A stretch of 64,000 nucleotides of DNA from Bacteroidales bacterium (lineage in GTDB: Bacteria; Bacteroidota; Bacteroidia; Bacteroidales; UBA3663), in contig JAZQOF010000036.1 in the NCBI GenBank assembly GCA_045627785.1, forward strand, positions 21,171 through 85,170. The letters run 5' to 3'. Below, piece by piece: positions 29,166 to 48,623 of the stretch; position 1 is the first letter of the stretch; each line of letters starts with the position of its first letter. The notes beneath the pieces were generated by a model. It saw only the letters and a program-made list of their open reading frames with translations. It was not told where the DNA came from and ran no database searches. Both the position numbers and the translations under genes were made by a program.

Positions 29166-29864
29166 TTAGCGGCGTCCTACGCTTGCGCTTCTTGTTCCAC
29201 CTCCAATGTTGTTGTTGACCTGAGCACGAGTGTTACCAACTCGAGTATTGCCAGTGCGATTGTTGCCGCCTTTGTTCATTGCAACATTGCTGTTGTTACG
29301 GTTGTTGCTGTGGTTTACATTATTGTTTTTGTTAGGTGCAACATTTCCATTCTTATGAGGAGCTGGAGTTACGTGAGCGTTGTTGTGTGGAACAGGCTTT
29401 GATTCTTTGCGATAGTGATCAACGCGAGCCATGTAGTGGTTCTTGTTATGTGCGTGTCCGCCATCGTAGTGACGATAACCAGCAGGTGCGCTGTAGTAGA
29501 AGTGGTTGTGTGCATAGTGATTGTGTACACCAATTACCCAAGCGCTGTTGACTACATGTACAGGAGTGAAGAAGTACTCGATGCTCTTGTAACGGATCCA
29601 CTGAGATGGAGTGAGTACATACTGGATCTCCTGATTACGCATCTCATAAGCAAAGATATTGTTGTCATATACGCTTGCGAGAGAGCGGAAATAGTCGTAG
29701 TTGATCTCGTAGATGTCTTCGATCTGATAAGTGTTGAGGTTGAGCTCCCAAGCCATCTTGTCTGTGAGGAAGCGTGCTTCACGGCTTGAGCGAGATACGC
29801 TCATTGCATTTACGTTAACTACTGCAACTGCTGCGAGAACGAGTGTGATAAAGAACTTCTTCAT
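29166..29864 (-). CDS. Secreted hypothetical protein with a His/Asn-rich low-complexity C-terminus
   Basis: Signal peptide MKKFFITLVLAAVAVVNVNA, and a C-terminal half rich in H, N and Y (HNHYAHNHFYY...NKNNNVNHSNNRNNSN). Confidence 0.6.
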   Translation of the reverse strand: MKKFFITLVLAAVAVVNVNAMSVSRSSREARFLTDKMAWELNLNTYQIEDIYEINYDYFRSLASVYDNNIFAYEMRNQEIQYVLTPSQWIRYKSIEYFFTPVHVVNSAWVIGVHNHYAHNHFYYSAPAGYRHYDGGHAHNKNHYMARVDHYRKESKPVPHNNAHVTPAPHKNGNVAPNKNNNVNHSNNRNNSNVAMNKGGNNRTGNTRVGNTRAQVNNNIGGGTRSASVGRR

Positions 29865-38526: not shown

Positions 38527-39150
38527 ATGAAACAAGAGATCCAGAAGAAAGGCGAGGTGATACTGTATCACCCGAGTGAGACCATCAAGTTGGAGGTACG
38601 ACTTGAAAACGAGACTGTGTGGCTGACGCAGCAGCAGATTGCTGAGTTATTTGGGGTAAGGCAACCTGCAATATCAAAACATCTAAATAATATCTTTAAG
38701 GAAGAAGAATTAGATCCGAGTTCAGTTCATTCCATTTTGGAATATACTGCGAGTGATGGCAAAATCTATAAAACAAATTTCTACAATCTTGATGCTATTC
38801 TTTCTGTAGGTTATAGAGTAAACAGCAAAAATGCTACTCAATTTCGTCGTTGGGCAAATAGCATCAAACTTGGGCAGGCAGAACAGCCAAAGAATATAAG
38901 CAGTTGAATGGTCTGAAGAAAGAGAATCTACGCGATAATATGACCAACGAGGAATTGGTCCTCAACATGCTGGCAGAACTTTCGACTACCAGCATTACCA
39001 AATCAAAAGATCCACAGACATTGGAAGAAAACATGCAATGTGCAGCCGATGGAGGAAATGCTGCACGCGTTGCCCGGGAGGAACTTGAAGCAAAAACCGG
39101 AAGATCGGTCGTTTCTCCTATGAGTGCTAACCGTTTCTTTGAAAGTCAAC
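38527..39150 (+). pseudogene. Gene remnants: RhuM-family N-terminal fragment fused out of frame to a DinD/RhuM-like C-terminal fragment
   Basis: 38527..38907 encodes only about the first 115 aa of a RhuM-type protein (IKLEVRLENETVWLTQQQIAELFG...SVGYRVNSKNATQFRRWA), then stops. The overlapping frame from 38904 carries a C-terminal-type segment (LRDNMTNEELVLNMLAELSTT...ARVAREELEAKTGRSVVS). The middle of the gene is missing. Confidence 0.65.
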
Positions 39151-39207
39151 AAGTAAAAAATATAAAAGGCGAAAACAAAGAGAAAAAATTTTTCCTTTTC
39201 GTCCAGC

Positions 39208-39300
39208 AAAAAAAGCCACCGTTGAGGACGATGGCTTCAGGACCTAATGTTTTCACAACGGACCGAAGTCCTTATTGTGAATTGCTGAAAAAATTGTACT
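39208..39300 (-). ncRNA. tracrRNA: tracrRNA of the type II-C system (predicted about 91 nt)
   Basis: The minus strand reads TACAATTTTTTCAGCAATTCACAA (anti-repeat), then TAAGGACTTCGGTCCGTTGTGAAAACATTAGGTCCTGAA and GCCATCG-TCCTCAA-CGGTGGC-TTTTTTT. It has 21-24 nt of perfect complementarity to the crRNA-sense repeat 5' end, a GGAC-UUCG-GUCC hairpin and an intrinsic terminator. Confidence 0.78.
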
Positions 39301-39301
39301 G

Positions 39302-39309
39302 CAAAAGTA
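39302..39309 (-). promoter_or_regulatory. -7 box (TACTTTTG on the minus strand) for the tracrRNA
   Basis: The plus strand reads CAAAAGTA, a perfect TAnnTTTG placed a few nt upstream of the first anti-repeat nucleotide. Confidence 0.5.
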
Positions 39310-39381
39310 GGAATTATTATTATTATAAGCAAATTTTACACGTTTTTTTATCGAAAAAGAAGGAATTTATGTCTAATTTTG

Positions 39382-39389
39382 TATATTTG
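39382..39389 (+). promoter_or_regulatory. -7 box TATATTTG for cas9
   Basis: Perfect TAnnTTTG, 23 nt upstream of the cas9 ATG and divergent from the tracrRNA promoter. Confidence 0.55.
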
Positions 39390-39412
39390 TCGGAGTATTT
39401 AAAGATAATAAC

Positions 39413-42400
39413 ATGAAAAAGATATTAGGTCTGGACTTAGGAACAAATAGTATTGGTTGGGCGTTGGTCAATGAAGCGGAATCATCCAAGGAACAATCGA
39501 GTATAGTAAAGCTAGGTACAAGAATAATCCATTTCGACAACTTTGTTAAGTCTGATACAGGGGCAAGTCCATACGATGCAGTGAAAGATTTCAATGCAGG
39601 AAAGGGACTATCTCCGAATGCAGGACGCACTAAGGCTCATGGAATGCGTATACGCCTTCAAAGATATAAACTGCGTAGAAAGCATCTCATTAAGGTCTTG
39701 AAAGACTATCATTTGATTGATGATAGTACTCTCTTGTGCGAAGATGGAAAGCAGACAACTCTCCAGACTTATTTCTTAAGAGCAAAAGCTGCCACTGAAG
39801 AGATTTCTCTTGAAGAATTCGCTCGTGTGCTGCTTATGATAAACAAGAAGCGTGGCTATAAGAGCAGTCGAAAAGAAACGGCAGCAGATGAGAAAGTCGA
39901 CGAACAATCATATCTTGGTGCCATCAGTTCCAGAAGCAAGATGCTAGTGGATGAAGGTCTTACTGTCGGACAATGGAAATATCGTGTACTGTCGGAAGAT
40001 AGACATAAATCTTTGAAAGATGTTGTTTTCTATCGTCAGGATTATCTTGATGAATTTGAAAAGATATGGTCTGTTCAAAAGCAATATCATAAAGAATTGT
40101 CAGCAGAACTGAAGGAGATTATCCGAGATGTAATAATCTTCTATCAGCGAAGTTTGAAATCCCAGAAGTCTGCCATTTCTTTCTGTCCATTTGAAAGCCA
40201 ACAGAAAGAGACAGAAATTGCGGGCAAGAAATGCCTGCGCACTTTCGGATGTCGCGTTGCTCCAAAGTCTTCTCCATTGTTCCAGGAATTCAGAATCTAT
40301 CAAAATCTGAATAATGTCAAGGTAACTGATTTTGTAAATCACACAGAAAGAGTCCTGAAGATTGAAGAGATCAATGCTCTTTTCAGGGAGTTGTCTTATA
40401 AAGACAAGATGTCCAAGAATGAGGCTTTGAAGATCTTGAAACTCAAACCGAAGGAATATGACCTGAACTTTGAGGAACTACAAGGCAACCGAACGCAGGC
40501 TGCCTTAGTAAAGGCGCTCCATAAAGTGATGATCAATAGCGGAAATGAAGTTGAGAAATTCGCCAAGCTGGACGCTACCAACAAACTTTCCGTTCTCGAA
40601 CCATTTATGGGAAAACTAGGAATAAAGACCGATATACTTTATTTTGACTCATCAGTTCAAGGCAAGGATTTTGAGAGACAGCCTTCATTTGCACTTTGGC
40701 ATCTGTTGTATTCCTATGTATCAGACGATTCTCGTACTGGTAACGATAAACTGTTGCAAAAACTAGAAGAGACTTTCGGTATAAAGAAAGAATATGGAGA
40801 GATCTTTGCAAATGCAACTTTCGAACCAGATTACTGCGGATTAAGTAGCAAGGCAATTAAGAAGATTATGCCTCATCTAAAGGACGGTTATCGCTATGAT
40901 GAAGCTTGCGCTCTTGCAGGATACAATCATTCGGGATCTCTTACCAAAGAAGAGATTGAAAATAGAGAGTTGGATGAATTCCTTACTGCGATACCTCGTG
41001 CATCTTTGCGCAATCCTGTAGTTGAGAAGATTCTCAATCAGATGGTCAATGTCGTCAACGCGCTAATCCTGGAATATGGAAAGCCAGATGAGGTGCGTAT
41101 TGAACTTGCCCGAGAACTGAAGAAGACAGCGAAGCAGAGACAGCAGATGACTGATGCCATCAACAAGCAGACCAAGGAACACGAGAAGATTCGCACCATA
41201 TTGATCGAGGATTTCCGTATTCCAAATCCTACAAGAAATGACATTATCCGCTATAAGCTTTATCTCGAATTAGCTAAGAATGGATATAAGACACTCTATT
41301 CGAATACATACATTCCTGCAGAGGAACTTTTCTCAAAGAATTTTGATATAGAGCATATCATACCAAAGGCACGTCTCTTCAATGATTCTTTCTCGAACAA
41401 GACAATTGAAGCGCGCGATGTAAATATAGACAAAAGAGATAAAACAGCTTTTGACTATGTAAAGGATGCGTATGGAGAGGACGGATTGAATAATTATAAG
41501 GCAAGAGTTGAAGCATTATATAAGGATCACGCGATAAGCAAATCAAAGCGCGATATGCTTCTAATGTCAGAAGCTGAAATTCCTTCAGATTTCTTGAACA
41601 GGGATCTTGCGGAATCTCAATATATAGCACGACAGGCTCGTGAGATGCTTCTCACTATAGTAAGAACTGTAACATCTACCACAGGTTCTATTACCGATCG
41701 TTTACGTGAGGATTGGGAGCTTGTCGATGTTATGAAAGATTTGTCATGGGATAAGTATGAGAAGCTCGGACTCACAGAGACCTATACAGACAGTGAAGGA
41801 CGGAAGATAGGTAAGATTAAGGACTGGACCAAGAGAAACGACCATCGCCACCACGCTATGGATGCTCTGACTATTGCATTCACGAAACCTTCATACATTC
41901 AGTATCTCAACAACCTGAATGCAAGAAGCAACAAGGAAGGTGCAATTTATGGTATCCAGCAGAAGGAACTTGAAGTTCGTGGAGGCAAACTCCGTTTCAA
42001 GTGTCCGATGGATCTTAAGCAGTTCCGCCAGGAAGCAAAGAAACAGCTATCTGCAATATTCGTTTCACTGAAGCCTAAGGGCAAAGTGGCAACAATAAGT
42101 ATTAATCCGTCGGGAAAGCAGAAGACTATTACCCCAAGAGGTCAGTTGCATAATGAGACTGTGTATGGAAAGATTCTTCAACCTACAGTCAAGAGAGGGA
42201 AGAAGGAGTTTGAAGATGTATTTACTATCCGTAAGGCAGTAGGACCAGACTTGAAGGTCGATAAAGTTATTGATGATAAGATACGTGAGATTTTGATTCA
42301 AAGACTTGCAGAATTCGGAAATGATCCAAAGAAAGCTTTCGTAAATCTTGACGAAAATCCTATCTGGCAGAATCGCGAGAAAGGAATTGCTATTAAGAAA

Positions 42401-42961
42401 GTTAAGGTCAAGGGTGTTAATGTCGCAGTACCTCTTCACGAGAAACATGACAACAAGGGCAATACATTGACAGATAGGAGAGGTAATATAATTGCGTCTG
42501 ATTATGTCAGCACAAGCAATAATCATCATGTAGCGATATTCATTGACCAAGATGGCAAGTATCAAGAGCATATAGTGTCGCTTTTCGAAGCTGTGACCAG
42601 AAAGAATCAAGGTCTTAACGTCATTGACAAAACATATAATCACGAATTAGGTTGGCAGTTTGTGTTCACGATGAAGATCAATGAATACTTTGTATTCCCT
42701 AATCCTGAAACGAATTTCTATCCTAAGGAGATTGATTTGATGGATGAAAGATATTTGAGTGAGATAAGTAAGAATCTTTATAGAGTTCAGAAATTAACTT
42801 CAAAGGATTACTTCTTTAGAAATCATCTAGAAACAACACTGGATGATAAAAAAGAACTTCGAGATGTTACTTGGAAACGAGTTACAAAAATTCAGTTGTT
42901 AGACCAAGTGGTAAAGGTTCGAATTAACCATATAGGAAAGATAGTTCAAGTCGGAGAATAA
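39413..42961 (+). CDS. cas9: Cas9 endonuclease, type II-C (1182 aa)
   Basis: RuvC-I ILGLDLGTNSIGWALV, an Arg-rich bridge helix (RIRLQRYKLRRKH), RuvC-II VRIELAREL, HNH FDIEHIIPKARLFNDSFSNKT and RuvC-III NDHRHHAMDALTIAF. All catalytic residues are present. Confidence 0.97.
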   Translation: MKKILGLDLGTNSIGWALVNEAESSKEQSSIVKLGTRIIHFDNFVKSDTGASPYDAVKDFNAGKGLSPNAGRTKAHGMRIRLQRYKLRRKHLIKVLKDYHLIDDSTLLCEDGKQTTLQTYFLRAKAATEEISLEEFARVLLMINKKRGYKSSRKETAADEKVDEQSYLGAISSRSKMLVDEGLTVGQWKYRVLSEDRHKSLKDVVFYRQDYLDEFEKIWSVQKQYHKELSAELKEIIRDVIIFYQRSLKSQKSAISFCPFESQQKETEIAGKKCLRTFGCRVAPKSSPLFQEFRIYQNLNNVKVTDFVNHTERVLKIEEINALFRELSYKDKMSKNEALKILKLKPKEYDLNFEELQGNRTQAALVKALHKVMINSGNEVEKFAKLDATNKLSVLEPFMGKLGIKTDILYFDSSVQGKDFERQPSFALWHLLYSYVSDDSRTGNDKLLQKLEETFGIKKEYGEIFANATFEPDYCGLSSKAIKKIMPHLKDGYRYDEACALAGYNHSGSLTKEEIENRELDEFLTAIPRASLRNPVVEKILNQMVNVVNALILEYGKPDEVRIELARELKKTAKQRQQMTDAINKQTKEHEKIRTILIEDFRIPNPTRNDIIRYKLYLELAKNGYKTLYSNTYIPAEELFSKNFDIEHIIPKARLFNDSFSNKTIEARDVNIDKRDKTAFDYVKDAYGEDGLNNYKARVEALYKDHAISKSKRDMLLMSEAEIPSDFLNRDLAESQYIARQAREMLLTIVRTVTSTTGSITDRLREDWELVDVMKDLSWDKYEKLGLTETYTDSEGRKIGKIKDWTKRNDHRHHAMDALTIAFTKPSYIQYLNNLNARSNKEGAIYGIQQKELEVRGGKLRFKCPMDLKQFRQEAKKQLSAIFVSLKPKGKVATISINPSGKQKTITPRGQLHNETVYGKILQPTVKRGKKEFEDVFTIRKAVGPDLKVDKVIDDKIREILIQRLAEFGNDPKKAFVNLDENPIWQNREKGIAIKKVKVKGVNVAVPLHEKHDNKGNTLTDRRGNIIASDYVSTSNNHHVAIFIDQDGKYQEHIVSLFEAVTRKNQGLNVIDKTYNHELGWQFVFTMKINEYFVFPNPETNFYPKEIDLMDERYLSEISKNLYRVQKLTSKDYFFRNHLETTLDDKKELRDVTWKRVTKIQLLDQVVKVRINHIGKIVQVGE

Positions 42962-43015: not shown

Positions 43016-43951
43016 ATGATTAAAAAAACTCTTTGTTTCAGTAATCCTGCGGTTCTTTCATTAAAGAATAAACAGATGGAGATTCGATTACCGGAATCTC
43101 AGTTGCCAAAGACTAAATACAAGATTTTTGACGACAATTATCATAGTGTACCAATTGAAGATATTGGTGTAGTTGTTCTGGAGAATCATCAGATAACAAT
43201 TACGAATGCTCTTATAGAGGCACTTTTGAAAAATAATACTGCCGTAATAACTTGCGATTCGTCTCGAATGCCAACGGGTCTTCTTCTTCCATTGTCAGGG
43301 AACACGGTTCAATCTGAACGGTTTCAAGATCAATTAAGTTCTTCCTTACCTTTACGAAAGCAATTATGGCAACAAACAGTTCAAAGTAAAATTTATAATC
43401 AAGCAGTAACACTAAAATCACACACACAAAGTGAGACTGGTAATATGTTTGCTTGGGTAGATAAGGTTAAAAGCGGAGACGCTGATAATCTTGAAGCTCG
43501 TGCCGCTGTATATTATTGGAGGAATGTTTTTCCATCACTACCATATTTTATAAGAGGCAGAGAGGAAGATCCTCCTAACAATCTTTTGAACTATGGATAT
43601 GCAATACTAAGGGGCGTAATAGCACGATCTCTTGTTGGTAGTGGCTTATTGCCGACATTGGGGATTCATCACCATAATAAATATAATGCATATTGTTTAG
43701 CCGATGATATAATGGAGCCATATAGACCGTATGTCGATGAAATAGTGATAAAAATAATTGAGAGTGGAAGGGATTATAAGACGTTATCTACAGACTTGAA
43801 GAAAGAACTTCTGAAAATACCAACTATAGATGTTAACATTGGAGGACAACGAAGTCCGTTGATGATAGCCGCAACTACAACAACTGCATCGTTGGCAAAA
43901 TGCTTTACAGGCGAAATGAGAAAGATTGTATATCCAGAAATGATAATATAG
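43016..43951 (+). CDS. cas1: CRISPR-associated endonuclease Cas1 (type II)
   Basis: NLLNYGYAILRGVIARSLVGSGLLPTLGIHHHNKYNAYCLADDIMEPYRPYVD and 311 aa. Confidence 0.95.
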   Translation: MIKKTLCFSNPAVLSLKNKQMEIRLPESQLPKTKYKIFDDNYHSVPIEDIGVVVLENHQITITNALIEALLKNNTAVITCDSSRMPTGLLLPLSGNTVQSERFQDQLSSSLPLRKQLWQQTVQSKIYNQAVTLKSHTQSETGNMFAWVDKVKSGDADNLEARAAVYYWRNVFPSLPYFIRGREEDPPNNLLNYGYAILRGVIARSLVGSGLLPTLGIHHHNKYNAYCLADDIMEPYRPYVDEIVIKIIESGRDYKTLSTDLKKELLKIPTIDVNIGGQRSPLMIAATTTTASLAKCFTGEMRKIVYPEMII

Positions 43952-43952
43952 T

Positions 43953-44285
43953 ATGGACCGTTTAAGTCAATATAGAGCAATGTGGTTGTTTGTATTTTTC
44001 GATCTTCCAACAGAAACTAAGAGTGAGCGAAAAGAATATGCAAAATTTCGCAAAAATCTTATAGAAGATGGCTTTAATATGTTTCAGTTTTCCTTTTATA
44101 TTCGTTATTGTGCAAGCAAAGAAAATGCAGATGTTCATGCAAAAAGAGTACGTACATTCTTGCCACAAAATGGATATGTAGGTATGATGACAATAACAGA
44201 TAAACAATTCTCTCAGATTGAAATCTTTTTTGAGCAAGAACAAACTCCACCAGTACATGAAGGCGTACAACTAGAATTATTCTGA
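43953..44285 (+). CDS. cas2: CRISPR-associated endoribonuclease Cas2
   Basis: MWLFVFFDLPTETKSERKEYAKFRKNLIEDGF..., 110 aa, starting 1 nt after the cas1 stop. Confidence 0.93.
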   Translation: MDRLSQYRAMWLFVFFDLPTETKSERKEYAKFRKNLIEDGFNMFQFSFYIRYCASKENADVHAKRVRTFLPQNGYVGMMTITDKQFSQIEIFFEQEQTPPVHEGVQLELF

Positions 44286-44393: not shown

Positions 44394-45672
44394 GTTGTTA
44401 TTGCAAGTGCAAAGATATAATTTTTTCAGCAATTCACAACAACCGCTTTATAAACCTATCCTTGATAAGGTTGTTATTGCAAGTGCAAAGATATAATTTT
44501 TTCAGCAATTCACAACTCTTTCTCGTTCTTGCTGTGCTCTTGCTTGGTTGTTATTGCAAGTGCAAAGATATAATTTTTTCAGCAATTCACAACAGGTGCA
44601 TCGCGTTATATATCTAAGTATAGTTGTTATTGCAAGTGCAAAGATATAATTTTTTCAGCAATTCACAACAATCAGCTCTCCTTTCCGAAATCGCTCTCAG
44701 TTGTTATTGCAAGTGCAAAGATATAATTTTTTCAGCAATTCACAACTATTTGATTAGAGGGAAGATAAGGGGCGGAGTTGTTATTGCAAGTGCAAAGATA
44801 TAATTTTTTCAGCAATTCACAACATGTTCGGTATTTTATATGAAAATGGTAAAGTTGTTATTGCAAGTGCAAAGATATAATTTTTTCAGCAATTCACAAC
44901 TATTGTCGAGCACTTTTGCAAAATGGGGCAGTTGTTATTGCAAGTGCAAAGATATAATTTTTTCAGCAATTCACAACGACCACGAAATATAGGTCTACTA
45001 AATTGTCGTTGTTATTGCAAGTGCAAAGATATAATTTTTTCAGCAATTCACAACTTGACTGACTACGATAACGGCATTACAGAAGTTGTTATTGCAAGTG
45101 CAAAGATATAATTTTTTCAGCAATTCACAACGCATAAGAATTTGTATAAATGGTTAAACAGTTGTTATTGCAAGTGCAAAGATATAATTTTTTCAGCAAT
45201 TCACAACTCGGCGTTCTTTAGTTGTTCAGTAACGTCGGTTGTTATTGCAAGTGCAAAGATACAATTTTTTTCAGCAATTCACAACCATCTTACGGGGTTT
45301 ATTCCTACTTCGTGGTTGTTATTGCAAGTGCAAAGATACAATTTTTTTCAGCAATTCACAACTAATCGTCTGCCTTGCCAGTCAGTAACACAGTTGTTAT
45401 TGCAAGTGCAAAGATACAATTTTTTTCAGCAATTCACAACTTCTTCTATGCGCAACTTGAAGGGTGTGCGGTTGTTATTGCAAGTGCAAAGATACAATTT
45501 TTTCAGCAATTCACAACAACGAGATGATGAGCCGCATCGTATTCAACGTTGTTATTGCAAGTGCAAAGATACAATTTTTTTCAGCAATTCACAACTTGTC
45601 GAGGTTCTCGATCTTGAAAAGCACAGTTGTTATTGCAAGTGCAAAGATACAATTTTTTCAGCAATTCACAAC
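44394..45672 (-). CRISPR. CRISPR array: 17 repeats (47-48 nt), 16 spacers (29-30 nt), functional sense inferred to be the minus strand
   Basis: Repeat, plus strand: GTTGTTATTGCAAGTGCAAAGATATAATTTTTTCAGCAATTCACAAC. Repeat starts: 44394, 44470, 44547, 44623, 44700, 44777, 44854, 44931, 45008, 45085, 45161, 45238, 45315, 45393, 45471, 45548, 45626. Repeats 12-17 carry a T-to-C change (GATACAA), and repeats 12, 13, 14 and 16 also carry one extra T. Confidence 0.98.
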
Positions 45673-45717
45673 TAAATTATTGTTTACGCAAAACAAATAT
45701 TTTCACGGATTTTTTTG

Positions 45718-45725
45718 TATCTTTG
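45718..45725 (+). promoter_or_regulatory. -7 box TATCTTTG for the HTH gene pair
   Basis: Perfect TAnnTTTG, 35 nt upstream of ATG 45761 and 46 nt after the last full repeat. Confidence 0.55.
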
Positions 45726-45760
45726 CATCACGAAAAATTTTAATTCCAAATGAAACAATT

Positions 45761-46060
45761 ATGCAGATTAGATTGAAAGAAATTCTTGACAAGCAAGGTT
45801 TGACACAAGCTCAGTTGGCAGAAAAGATCGGAGTCACACCATCATCCATTTCCTGTGCCTTGTCTCGTGGAAACATTTCATTGTCGTTGCTTGACAGTTA
45901 TGCTCAGGCGCTCAACATTCCTACTTGGGAATTGTTGGTGTCTGGTGGTGAATTTGAAGAACCGGAACAGACATCTGGTGTTGCGCGTAACACCATGTTA
46001 GTCACATGTCCTAAATGTAATCAAAAACTTGAATTGGCACTTTCTGTAAAAACTCTTTGA
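45761..46060 (+). CDS. Small XRE-like HTH protein with a C-terminal CxxC motif (99 aa)
   Basis: LTQAQLAEKIGVTPSSISCALSRG HTH and a C-terminal VTCPKCNQKLEL. The ORF-track N-terminal extension (from 45464) is translation of CRISPR repeats and is rejected. Confidence 0.75.
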   Translation: MQIRLKEILDKQGLTQAQLAEKIGVTPSSISCALSRGNISLSLLDSYAQALNIPTWELLVSGGEFEEPEQTSGVARNTMLVTCPKCNQKLELALSVKTL

Positions 46061-46061
46061 T

Positions 46062-46364
46062 ATGACAGAATTAATTATTAAAGAACAGCTCAAAGCTCAC
46101 GGATTGACATTGACTCGTTTGGCTCAGGAAATGAATATATCCCAAGGATCATTATCTGTGATGATTCGCAGTAATTTGACATTACCTACTATCGAACGCA
46201 TAGCTCAGGTAATTGGCGTAGAACCTTATGAGCTTTTTATTACTAAAGAAAATCTCATGGCAGAACGCCAACGTCGATATAGGGAAGCAGTTCCTCGCGC
46301 TACTGTGTTCTGCCCTTGTTGTGGAAAGGCTATTTGCGTAAAGCTCGACATCGACAACCAATGA
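46062..46364 (+). CDS. Paralogous small XRE-like HTH protein with a C-terminal CPCC motif (100 aa)
   Basis: LTLTRLAQEMNISQGSLSVMIRSN HTH and a C-terminal VFCPCCGKAICV. It is collinear with the upstream gene and starts 1 nt after its stop. Confidence 0.75.
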   Translation: MTELIIKEQLKAHGLTLTRLAQEMNISQGSLSVMIRSNLTLPTIERIAQVIGVEPYELFITKENLMAERQRRYREAVPRATVFCPCCGKAICVKLDIDNQ

Positions 46365-46393
46365 TATTTCAGTAGTATTTTATAAGACTTCCT

Positions 46394-46427
46394 AAGCGGT
46401 ACAGGTTTCGGACTTGTACCGCTTTTT
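46394..46427 (+). terminator. Rho-independent terminator of the HTH pair
   Basis: 10-bp stem AAGCGGTACA / TGTACCGCTT whose 3' arm runs into a T5 run. Confidence 0.8.
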
Positions 46428-46438
46428 GTTTATTATTA

Positions 46439-46473
46439 GTTGTTGTTGCAAGTGCAAAGATACAATTTACAAC
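46439..46473 (-). repeat. Degenerate orphan CRISPR repeat (35 nt)
   Basis: GTTGTTGTTGCAAGTGCAAAGATACAATTT--ACAAC. The first 30 nt match the repeat at 29 of 30 positions (C-allele), an internal 12-13 nt is deleted, and the terminal ACAAC is retained. Confidence 0.85.
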
Positions 46474-46475
46474 TG

Positions 46476-47343
46476 CCAGAAAGTATCGAGACAAATGCGG
46501 TGTATCAGCGTAGTGGAAAGCTATTCACAATTTGCTTGAAAAAGTCACAACTTGATTCAGTAAAGTTATTATCTCAGTAAACTCAGAGTTGCTCGATGCT
46601 AATTGGCAGACAGGACAATATATCGTAGAGTTTGAACAAGGAGGCAATGCCAAAGCCAAATATGGAGACAAATTGTTGATAAACCTTACGTATATTCGCA
46701 AATTGTATTTGGTATTTCCAAAATGTGAGACGCTGTCTCATCAATTGACCTGGAGCCATTACTTTGAATTGCTCAAATGTGAAGACAAGTTGGAGATGCA
46801 GTTTTACATGAAAGAGTGCATCAAGGAGGGATGGAATGTTAGAGAACTTAAACGCCAGATTAACTCATCTTTATTCCAAAGACTGGCTCTCAGTACGGAT
46901 AAAGAAGGTGTTCTTGCCCTTGCAAACGAGGGACATCAGGTGATTACCCCTACGGATATTATCCGTGACCCATATGTACTGCTTTTATTGGTCGTCAGTA
47001 TGTTGTGCCTATTGGTGCAAGACGCTTTAAGGTTGACTTGGTGTTTTATCATGCCATTCTCAAATGCTATGTGCTGATTGATTTGAAACGTGCTGAGATA
47101 AAACATGGAGATATAGGTCAGATGAACCTATATCTGAACTATTTCAAGAATGAAGTGTGTCAGCCAGATGACAATCCTCCAATTGGAATTGTTTTAGGTG
47201 CAAAGAAAGATGAAATTCTCATGGAGTATGCTCTACAAGGAATTGACAACCAACTTTTCGCAGCGCGCTATCAATTGTATTTGCCTAACCGAGAGGAACT
47301 GCAAGCTCAATTGAATTTATTGTTAGATACTCATCAAGAATAG
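46476..47343 (+). pseudogene. DUF1016/YhcG-family PD-(D/E)XK nuclease pseudogene (frameshifts and internal deletion)
   Basis: Homology is split over at least 3 frames: LKKSQLDSVK..., then VNSELLDANWQTGQYIVEFEQGGNAKAKYG...IIRDPYVL, then a frame change to GRQYVVPIGARRFKVDLVFYH...VLIDLK...PPIGIVLG. The linker between DPYVL and GRQ is missing. Confidence 0.7.
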
Positions 47344-47462: not shown

Positions 47463-47792
47463 CTAACATAGAATGTCATTAATCAGCAACCCTTCAAGCA
47501 CCTGCTGCTGTAATCGTGGTGACATTTCACAGAACTCTTTGTAAGTTGGTCTTCGCCAATGAGACAAAACAACAGAAGGTTTTACGTGTTTTGAGGTTCG
47601 CTTGTAGCGCATAATTCCGAAGCTGCAATGATCGCATTGAAATAACATTAGGGCATATCCTTTGTTGTCACAGGTTGTAATCTTAAATTCTCTGCATTTG
47701 TCGCATACGTAAAGATCGTAGTCTTTGCGATGATCCTCGATATTTGAATTGTCAAGATTCTGCAATGCTATTGTGTATTCTTCTTCTGTCAT
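47463..47792 (-). CDS. Hypothetical Cys-rich (zinc-ribbon-like) protein, 109 aa
   Basis: CDKC...CDHC motif pair. A minus-strand -7 box (plus strand CAAATATA at 47807..47814) lies inside the ORF-track extension, so the start is taken as ATG 47792 (MTEEEY). Confidence 0.5.
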   Translation of the reverse strand: MTEEEYTIALQNLDNSNIEDHRKDYDLYVCDKCREFKITTCDNKGYALMLFQCDHCSFGIMRYKRTSKHVKPSVVLSHWRRPTYKEFCEMSPRLQQQVLEGLLINDILC

Positions 47793-47877
47793 AACTTTTA
47801 TTTTGGCAAATATAAGTAAAATCACATTTACTTTGTATCTTTGTTGTTCGATTCGAGGTCAGAATGATTTATAATGT

Positions 47878-47918: not shown

Positions 47919-48623
47919 ATGAAAATTACGAGTTGGAACTGCTGCCAGGTTCTAAGAAATAAATATAAAGGTTTGACAAAGTTTGACAAAGGTCAAGCAA
48001 AGTCGGATATTTATGTCATTATGGAGTGCGAGAACCCAGAAAAATCTTCTGATTCTGAATACAAGAAATTGTTGAAAAATGGCTTCTGGAAAGGAACACT
48101 CAATCATAAAGGACTTGCCATTTTCTCGCCTGATCCAAATGTAAAATTGGAGTTGATTGATTGGCCTGGAAAAGAATGTGAACATTTTATTCCAGTCAGG
48201 GTGAATGATGTATTTACACTTGTAGGTGTTTGGGCTTGTGATCCTTATTGCGCCATGTTCTATGATTATCTTCAGCAGATAAAAGAATATATCACAAAGG
48301 ATACAATCTTTATAGGAGATTTCAATAGCAATATCAAATTCGACAAGGCTCAAAAGAAATCTGGAAAGACATGGTCAAGTTGCCTTTCTATAGCGAGAGA
48401 AAAAGGGTTAGTCGATATATACAATAGTATTAAAGGAGAAGATGAAGGGAAAGAAACAACCCCAACTTTCTTCTTGTATCGTCATCTTGATAGACCGGAT
48501 CATATCGACCATTGTTTGGCAAATCCGGATATGATTAAATCTATGAAGATTCTTGTAAAAGCAGAATGGCTTTCTTTAAGCGATCATCTTCCTTTAGTCG
48601 TTGATGTTAAATCGGAAGATTAG
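47919..48623 (+). CDS. Endonuclease/exonuclease/phosphatase (EEP) family protein
   Basis: KITSWNC..., VIMECE, IGDFNSN and SDHLPLVVDV are the EEP catalytic motifs. Confidence 0.75.
   Translation: MKITSWNCCQVLRNKYKGLTKFDKGQAKSDIYVIMECENPEKSSDSEYKKLLKNGFWKGTLNHKGLAIFSPDPNVKLELIDWPGKECEHFIPVRVNDVFTLVGVWACDPYCAMFYDYLQQIKEYITKDTIFIGDFNSNIKFDKAQKKSGKTWSSCLSIAREKGLVDIYNSIKGEDEGKETTPTFFLYRHLDRPDHIDHCLANPDMIKSMKILVKAEWLSLSDHLPLVVDVKSED

Follow-up and report, generated by a model that had tools for sequence, protein, structure and literature searches.

To our knowledge, CRISPR arrays are thought to store short, guide-sized fragments only. Phage morons are autonomous units of promoter, gene and terminator that lie between phage genes. 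Recombination between the spacers of arrays and the protospacers of phages was reportedly described by Varble et al. in 2019 in Nature Microbiology. The integration of a prophage into the repeats of a type II array is documented for phiAP1.1 in Streptococcus pyogenes, often takes place at a degenerate terminal repeat and involves an 8-bp attP core (bioRxiv 10.1101/2020.10.09.333658). Here we describe a type II-C array in a 64,000-nt stretch of a Bacteroidales contig (JAZQOF010000036.1; the whole stretch is called the window below), in which a complete, apparently phage-derived gene unit stands in the place of a spacer. We refer to this unit as the cassette and to its two genes as A and B. All coordinates are positions within the window, and L-numbers denote the other contigs that were compared with it. 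Each of the ingredients is known, namely phage-derived spacers, prophages in arrays, morons and domesticated repressors; the literature gave no description of an intact gene unit that takes the place of a spacer, is precisely bounded and still exchanges alleles.

The cassette takes the place of spacer 17. Its left junction (45672/45673) follows directly after ...CACAAC and its right junction (46438/46439) directly precedes GTTGTT. It is thus bounded exactly by two array repeats, and the homology to the donor copies described below ends at both boundaries. Like an ordinary spacer, the cassette has repeats on both sides, meets them at the repeat boundaries, consists of mobile-element DNA and is in register with the array. 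Unlike an ordinary spacer, it measures 766 nt as against the 29–31 nt set by the Cas1-Cas2 ruler in this array, and it holds a complete, expressed-looking unit under purifying selection; its content is genes and not a guide. A first-pass annotation of this DNA had described a self-contained cassette in a spacer position, and this description holds: the 766 nt contain one unit with a -7 box at 45718, two paralogous genes of 99 and 100 aa placed 1 nt apart, and a terminator (Table 1). Transcription of the unit would start at the promoter that it carries and would run on the other strand from CRISPR RNA (crRNA) transcription and convergent with it, with the terminator as insulation. At its left end the cassette also has a 12-nt imperfect palindrome (45674–45702), which is not conserved in the donor copies L001 and L005.

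The same unit is found without a CRISPR repeat in three phage-like contigs. L001 matches window 45673–46441 with 95.6% identity, L004 matches 45681–46444 with 79% and L005 matches 45686–46441 with 71.5%. The homology begins 0–13 nt inside the left repeat boundary and ends 3–6 nt beyond the right one, and the flanks of all three copies are unrelated to the array. The genes upstream are different in each case: L001 has a DUF6261 gene there, L004 a gene of 149 aa that is preceded further up by DUF5675 and 182-aa genes, and L005 a run of small genes. A diverged copy in L081, which comes from the same sample as the array copy L003, provides a fourth non-array context with a different upstream region altogether. 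In L001, L004 and L005 the unit has retained its -7 box, its 5' untranslated region (5'UTR) and its terminator hairpin. Its GC content is 39–42% compared to 48–57% for the neighbours, and in L001 38.8% compared to 56.6% for the adjacent gene. Matches to PHROG families in these contigs comprise an exonuclease (phrog_255, 1.9e-21) in L005, phrog_1501 in both L005 (7e-18) and L004 (1e-19), and phrog_7314 (6e-14) in L005. The unit shares with morons the possession of its own promoter and terminator, the changing upstream neighbours and a GC content below that of the surrounding phage genes. Judged by these features, the interval is a complete phage-derived transcription unit of the moron type. It differs from the morons described so far in that these lie inside phage genomes, whereas the cassette has been transplanted into a bacterial CRISPR array.

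The first-pass annotation had also considered an Aca-like or anti-defence remnant captured by recombination between repeats. Capture from a mobile element is supported by the repeat-free unit in L001, L004 and L005, but the context does not support the Aca-like part, as the pair has kept a promoter of its own in three out of four contexts outside arrays. An Aca-like host copy would repress the acr promoters of incoming phages and thereby protect Cas9, and host-held Aca proteins have been discussed as possible anti-anti-CRISPRs (PMC8633003, PMC9410906). The pair resembles the Aca repressors in that both are small, phage-borne helix-turn-helix (HTH) proteins with a link to CRISPR-Cas, in this case a position beside a Cas9 system, and genes of unknown function are found upstream of the pair in L004 and L005. 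We nevertheless regard such a role as improbable. In an acr operon the aca gene directly follows the acr gene, whereas no acr-like gene upstream shares a transcript with the pair in L001, L004 or L005. The conserved promoter of its own in these three contigs, together with a terminator-like hairpin just upstream of the pair in L004, shows that the pair does not close an acr operon. Its neighbours on the upstream side change from one context to the next, and no chain named Aca is found among the sequence matches in the PDB, only generic XRE repressors.

Two further observations concern the phage-context copies themselves. About 130 nt of non-coding sequence downstream of the unit are common to L001, L004 and L005 and absent from the host. 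After the unit a conserved non-coding element (L001 2164–2198, L004 3005–3039 and L005 6230–6264) reads TTCACGGCAATTACATTCAC followed by TTTCACGCATTTACG. This element is conserved despite a synonymous divergence (dS) above 1 in the coding sequence and may serve the phage as operator, promoter or packaging signal; it is missing from the host copy. L001 furthermore has short tandem repeats at both contig ends (1–110 and 2380–2437), with AAAGTTAAAAGTTAAAAG and ATTATCAATTATCAATTATC at one end and CTACCACTACCTACTACTACC at the other. These repeats probably explain why every assembly of the element breaks there.

Seven other metagenome contigs, from different sequencing samples, contain the cassette in this same array context (L002, L003, L051–L054 and L056). 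The junction between repeat 17 and the cassette is spanned by L002, L003, L053, L054 and L056. The cassette together with the decayed repeat (with the identical 12-nt deletion) and the trailer is spanned by L051–L054 and L056, while L002 ends 29 nt into the downstream repeat. The junctions are identical in all array copies, which points to a single insertion event. By this evidence the cassette entered the array once, and it has become fixed in this bacterial lineage. An array-targeted mobile cassette, which was among the earlier suggestions, is not supported in view of these identical junctions, and no other array with the cassette was found in 185,579 species genomes, IMG/VR or the JGI/ENA contigs. 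The probability that an assembly artefact has joined phage and array sequence is close to nil. Short-read assemblers can jump via a spacer that is identical to its target, and the first 143 nt of L002 may be the result of such a jump. However, the left junction recurs in five of the contigs and the right junction with the trailer likewise in five, and the array and phage copies differ at the bases next to the junctions, which leaves no shared k-mer path between them.

Two allele classes (groups 1 and 2) exist at this one array position. Between the window and L053, repeat 17 and the first ~115 nt of the cassette are 98.7% identical and the decayed repeat and trailer 99.4%, while the cores of gene A and gene B show only 74.9% and 87.8% identity, respectively. 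The dS between the allele classes is ~1.06 for gene A and 0.52 for gene B. Such a high dS in the core beside near-identical flanks can be explained only if recombination has put the core of a diverged copy in its place. On the evidence of these alignments, the coding core has been exchanged at least once by homologous recombination, and diverged copies are found only in phage-like, non-array contigs. L056 represents a further mosaic, in which the coding core of the window is combined with a 3'UTR common to L001 and the second allele class. Homologous recombination moving DNA between phage and array is also what was reportedly described for spacers and protospacers by Varble et al. 2019. The core of the window is 98.5–99.3% identical to that of L001: across 199 codons, 9 differences are synonymous and 0 are non-synonymous. 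All complete copies of genes A and B are intact (window, L001–L005, L051–L054 and L056), and the ratio of non-synonymous to synonymous divergence (dN/dS) lies between 0.03 and 0.16 across diverged pairs.

Both proteins combine an XRE-type HTH with a C-terminal Cys motif (CPKC in A and CPCC..C in B), as had been read from the sequence at first pass. Protein A scores 41.3 bits with the Pfam profile HTH_3 (cut-off 23) and 26.8 bits with HTH_26 (cut-off 22). Protein B scores 32.9 bits with HTH_26 and 32.4 bits with HTH_3, in both cases above the Pfam gathering score. The two are paralogues with 27% identity over 95 residues (E 2e-10), and the C-P-x-C motif is invariant across all aligned relatives of the family. 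An AlphaFold model shows five helices within residues 5–58 (predicted local distance difference test, pLDDT, 76–85), corresponding to a five-helix bundle fold. The model is weak overall (mean pLDDT 67, C-terminus <55) and informative for the HTH domain only. A single β-hairpin (residues 78–93), which follows a disordered linker and bears the CPxC, is predicted at low confidence. Sequence matches among PDB chains are to generic XRE repressors, including the 434 repressor, SinR and an immunity repressor. The best PHROG matches are to transcriptional regulators and repressors, and PADLOC gives a weak match (2e-8) to a model named HTH_VI.

A zinc ribbon is made up of two Cys knuckles with four ligands in one chain. 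Protein A and its relatives of 81–83 aa have one CPxC only, and protein B has the CPCC and one further Cys. The presence of one CPxC per chain on a predicted hairpin, and its replacement by another C-terminal domain in some relatives, suggests that a zinc site might be shared between subunits and that the C-terminus is a zinc-bridged dimerisation module. Both proteins would bind DNA as dimers. The region of the recognition helix is the most variable stretch between alleles in protein A, whereas it is conserved in protein B.

The two proteins are very rare, with 4 (A) and 3 (B) clusters among 5.8 billion proteins. No close relative of the pair was found in the 185,579 species representative genomes (GTDB), IMG/VR, the JGI/ENA metagenome-contig collection or GenBank phages. 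Distant relatives with 32–47% identity include proteins of 80–83 aa that have an HTH and a single CPxC, and the 81-aa relatives of this type sit in the immunity regions of temperate phages. In L006 the 81-aa gene has a RecT/exonuclease early operon, encoded on the opposite strand, on one side and a CI-like HTH gene on the other, and an integrase lies at the end of the contig; the same core arrangement is seen in L010. No CRISPR array was found within 10 kb in any of the loci fetched for the distant relatives.

Because the family occurs in phage immunity regions and the host copy has been preserved, we favour the reading that the cassette is a moron-type repressor module of a phage, captured in a spacer position and retained by the host, where it probably provides repressor-type immunity. 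We would put the probability of this at roughly 55%. Proteins A and B would bind operators of the donor phage family, and the host would hold the repressor without the prophage, with the result that incoming phages of a matching immunity type would be silenced. Allele replacement would update the specificity and in this way track the immunity types of the phages. The array would be a landing site only, and the cassette would not regulate the CRISPR locus. The XRE HTH fold, the relatives in immunity regions and the one variable recognition helix are all shared with the CI/Cro-type repressors and with the superinfection immunity given by cryptic prophages. In contrast to these, the cassette consists of two tandem paralogues of ~100 aa with a single CPxC knuckle instead of a known dimerisation or peptidase domain, and there is no prophage around it.

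Several observations do not sit easily with a repressor held for immunity. No operator was found: the conserved non-coding sequence comprises the cassette's own promoter and 5'UTR and the downstream phage element that the host lacks, and no further copy of either is present in the window (including the cas9/tracrRNA region) or in the donor fragments. The group-2 array alleles combine the group-1 promoter region with a different gene A allele, which is awkward if protein A regulates its own expression. The intact open reading frames (ORFs) and the low dN/dS could reflect selection on the phage side if a neutral host copy is repeatedly overwritten by gene conversion. At 2.4–6.3 kb the donor contigs are short, and the neighbouring gene in L001 has no match to a phage family, so the "phage" could be another kind of mobile element. 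Finally, no true protospacer was found in 50,697 phage genomes or, for spacers 1, 2, 15 and 16, in IMG/VR.

The state of the array around the cassette is relevant here. The first-pass annotation had seen a lone orphan repeat beyond the cassette. This is indeed a decayed terminal repeat (repeat 18), but it is not alone, as a second decayed repeat follows at ~46512–46551, with an alignment to the repeat that none of 500 shuffles equalled. Even so, genes A and B have repeats on either side and are not simply neighbours of the array, as could also have been the case. Position 7 of repeat 18 is the consensus A in L002, L051, L052 and L054. A minus-strand -7 box facing the cassette has been kept in repeat 18, in agreement with the antisense promoter proposed earlier. 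Its promoter activity is nevertheless doubtful, because, with 12 nt deleted, the box no longer has its normal distance from the upstream part of the promoter. Just beyond the array end, the YhcG gene is a pseudogene (Table 1), and in L051 it is split into the same two overlapping ORFs.

The cassette might also be a neutral passenger, that is, a recombination scar or an oversized spacer without any role in the host, intact only because it is young or is repeatedly converted by the copies of infecting phages. Its location would agree with this, since the decaying trailer is the part of the array under the weakest selection, as would the allele classes that mirror phage alleles, the near-identity of the window core to L001 and the lack of an operator or target in the host in our search of the window. 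On the other hand, the flanking repeats have had time to decay (the 12-nt deletion, point changes and a second relic repeat) and the neighbouring YhcG gene has become a pseudogene, yet the ORFs, promoter and terminator of the cassette are intact in every copy that covers them. The differences from L001, 0 of which are non-synonymous as against 9 synonymous, likewise argue for selection. We therefore consider a passenger without function possible but unlikely.

The pair had furthermore been proposed to regulate the CRISPR locus itself, acting on the promoters of cas9, of the trans-activating CRISPR RNA (tracrRNA) or of the repeats. The box TATCTTTG is found on the minus strand in each array repeat, and each repeat would accordingly have a promoter inside it. 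The cassette promoter and the repeat promoter have TTGTATCTTTGCA in common, which together with the physical linkage and the weak HTH_VI match would be expected of a regulator of the locus. These shared 13 nt are, however, essentially the general -7 consensus of Bacteroidota, and the conserved promoter/5'UTR element of the cassette has no second copy in the window. Close and distant relatives of the pair occur in phage contexts with no array within 10 kb, and as the pair is absent from all species representatives scanned, other II-C loci do without it. No support for the proposal was found, and we think it quite improbable that the cassette controls the host CRISPR-Cas system.

As to how the cassette arrived, one contig links the array directly to a donor. 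Positions 1–143 of L002 are the reverse complement of the DUF6261 gene of L001 and directly adjoin the CRISPR repeat that precedes the cassette; in L001 this gene lies ~275 nt upstream of cassette gene A. The 143 nt are either a second long insert or an assembly path via a 30-nt spacer identical to its target. The latter is more likely because the assembler word size is 31. Either way, the array is tied to the donor element. If the join is a spacer, the sequence on the side of the protospacer adjacent motif (PAM) would read GGAACTGC. No relative of the DUF6261 protein of L001 was found in IMG/VR.

Two routes of capture can be considered. Cas1-Cas2 may have integrated an oversized fragment at what was then the leader-proximal repeat, or phage DNA may have recombined at a pair of adjacent spacers corresponding to the two ends of the unit. 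The junctions exactly at the repeat boundaries fit the integration of a long fragment by Cas1-Cas2. The allele replacement makes recombination between phage copies and the locus evident, which is relevant to the double recombination route; we know of no description of the capture of a gene cassette by two spacer crossovers. That the fragment comprises one complete transcription unit and nothing else is best accounted for if selection decided what was kept. In its most far-reaching form, Cas1-Cas2 would have taken up the 766-bp phage unit as an oversized spacer, and the host would keep it as a heritable, protein-based immune memory whose specificity is renewed by recombination with phages. We regard this combined scenario as rather unlikely.

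The 16 spacers and the relic spacer had no match in 24 loci including L001, L004 and L005. BLAST of the array against the 50,697 phage genomes gave only chance matches, the best being 25/26 nt in mycobacteriophages, apart from a mini-array in a Riemerella phage that matched the repeat. Exact 20–22-nt scans of IMG/VR with spacers 1, 2, 15 and 16 returned nothing for three of them and, for spacer 16, a chance 22/30 match in a contig of 68,090 bp. This contig is probably from the same phage group as the mycobacteriophage matches because the same part of spacer 16 is concerned.

The mini-array belongs to the isolated Riemerella phage vB_RanS_CRP19 (OR089151.1 ~29280–29545; L080 1480–1745) and is unannotated in the record. 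It consists of three 47-nt II-C-type repeats GTTGCGAACTATCACAAAGATAGTAAATTTTTGAAAGCAATTCACAAC, a degenerate fourth repeat and three 30-nt spacers, two of which are identical. Phage-borne repeats of this kind would supply homology for recombination with host arrays.

A third possibility is that a prophage once disabled the array by site-specific integration into a CRISPR repeat, and that the cassette is what was left after most of it had been deleted. In both phiAP1.1 and the present locus, phage DNA is found in a Cas9 array near a degenerate terminal repeat and the content of the array is rearranged. L001 moreover has TTGTTATT just past the terminator, identical to repeat positions 2–9. But phiAP1.1 is a complete prophage that has an integrase; its crossover takes place in an 8-bp core within the repeat, and immunity is neutralised (bioRxiv 10.1101/2020.10.09.333658). 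The cassette comprises two genes only, and neither an integrase nor any other prophage gene is present between the repeats. Both of its junctions are at repeat ends and not inside a repeat, where an att core would leave hybrid repeats on both sides, and a crossover in TTGTTATT predicts a sequence other than the one observed. Similarity between the phage flanks and the repeat did not exceed that of shuffled controls. As II-C repeats carry their own promoters, an insertion in the trailer would not silence the array, and no effect on the other crRNAs is to be expected. A prophage remnant is thus very improbable.

This locus has a natural array in which a whole phage gene unit fits exactly within the boundaries of a spacer; the unit is stable across strains and still exchanges alleles with phages. 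If the acquisition machinery made the capture, insertions on the kilobase scale would occasionally take place in vivo, which bears on the casposon link and on DNA-recording tools. If recombination through spacers was responsible, spacers would act as homology arms that let the host take useful phage genes. With either route the locus would combine nucleic-acid-based and repressor-based immunity. The pair also represents uncharacterised small regulators with an HTH and a Cys knuckle, from gut or rumen Bacteroidota phages, that are open to experimental testing.

The surrounding system belongs to type II-C, with cas9, cas1 and cas2 only, a tracrRNA, and an array oriented opposite to the cas operon (Table 1). 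The anti-repeat ACAATTTTTTCAGCAATTCACAA pairs with the repeat as read on the minus strand. This strand is therefore expected to give the crRNAs, with transcription running towards cas2, and such an array orientation against the cas genes is typical of II-C loci (PMC3936727). Repeats 1–11 are of a GATATAA variant and repeats 12–17 of a GATACAA variant. Since the decayed repeats are at the end distal to cas2, new spacers would be added at the cas2 side, and the cassette would lie at the old (trailer) end. The host can be placed in Bacteroidota from SusC/SusD genes and a hybrid two-component regulator elsewhere in the window.

Table 1. Positions of the cassette, the array and the cas genes in the window.
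Feature	Position	Strand	Remarks
Cassette, in place of spacer 17	45673..46438	+	766 nt; single transcription unit between repeat 17 and decayed repeat 18
-7 promoter box	45718-45725	+	TATCTTTG, Bacteroidota type; invariant in four diverged lineages
Conserved 5'UTR	45725-45760	+	<=2 differences per 19-nt block tested, although coding dS >1
Gene A	45761-46060	+	99 aa; ATG at 45761; XRE HTH at residues 1-60, linker, C-terminal β-hairpin with CPKC
Gene B	46062-46364	+	100 aa; paralogous XRE HTH and CPCCGKAIC; starts 1 nt past the stop of gene A
Intrinsic terminator	46394..46433	+	stem 46394-46424, 14 bp, 3-nt loop, T-rich tail
Decayed repeat 18	46439..46473	-	29/30 first nt match the repeat, 12-nt deletion, then ACAAC
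Relic spacer	46474..46511		spacer-sized gap between the two decayed repeats
Decayed repeat 19	~46512-46551	-	similar to the repeat over its 3' two-thirds, apart from indels; score of the local alignment 32 (0/500 shuffles as high)
DUF1016/YhcG nuclease pseudogene	46589..47343	+	PD-(D/E)XK; N-terminal truncation and frameshift; PADLOC candidate PDC-S02; abuts array end
CRISPR array	44394..45672	-	17 intact repeats of 47-48 nt and 16 spacers of 29-30 nt
cas9	39413-42961	+	ORF; Cas9 profile TIGR01865, E 1.3e-151
cas1	43016-43951	+	ORF; Pfam Cas1 match on identical protein
cas2	43953-44285	+	ORF; Pfam Cas2 match on identical protein
tracrRNA	39215..39298	-	-7 box TACTTTTG upstream, then anti-repeat ACAATTTTTTCAGCAATTCACAA, stem-loops, terminator

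Both borders of the CRISPR locus are variable. Truncated RhuM/Bro-N-like fragments (38527–39416) lie just upstream of the tracrRNA, and other strains (L041–L044) have different genes at this place. On the trailer side, a 120-aa Cys-rich protein with several CxxC motifs (47463–47825, minus strand) has as its divergent partner a 234-aa protein of the endonuclease/exonuclease/phosphatase fold (47919–48623, plus strand). This divergent pair is kept beside the variable region in 10 of the 10 strain contigs shown and has no match to a defence-system model. The region left of 47482 is a variable defence island. In L039, which belongs to another strain, a type I-C-like array (1–410; repeat GTCGCCCCTCACGTAGGGGCGTGGATTGAAAC, at least 6 copies, the last one degenerate) adjoins the homologue of window 47479 onward and lies to the left of the genes conserved from window 47482. 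Further strains (L032–L038) have a DpnII restriction-modification system or a HIRAN-domain gene at the position of the L039 array.

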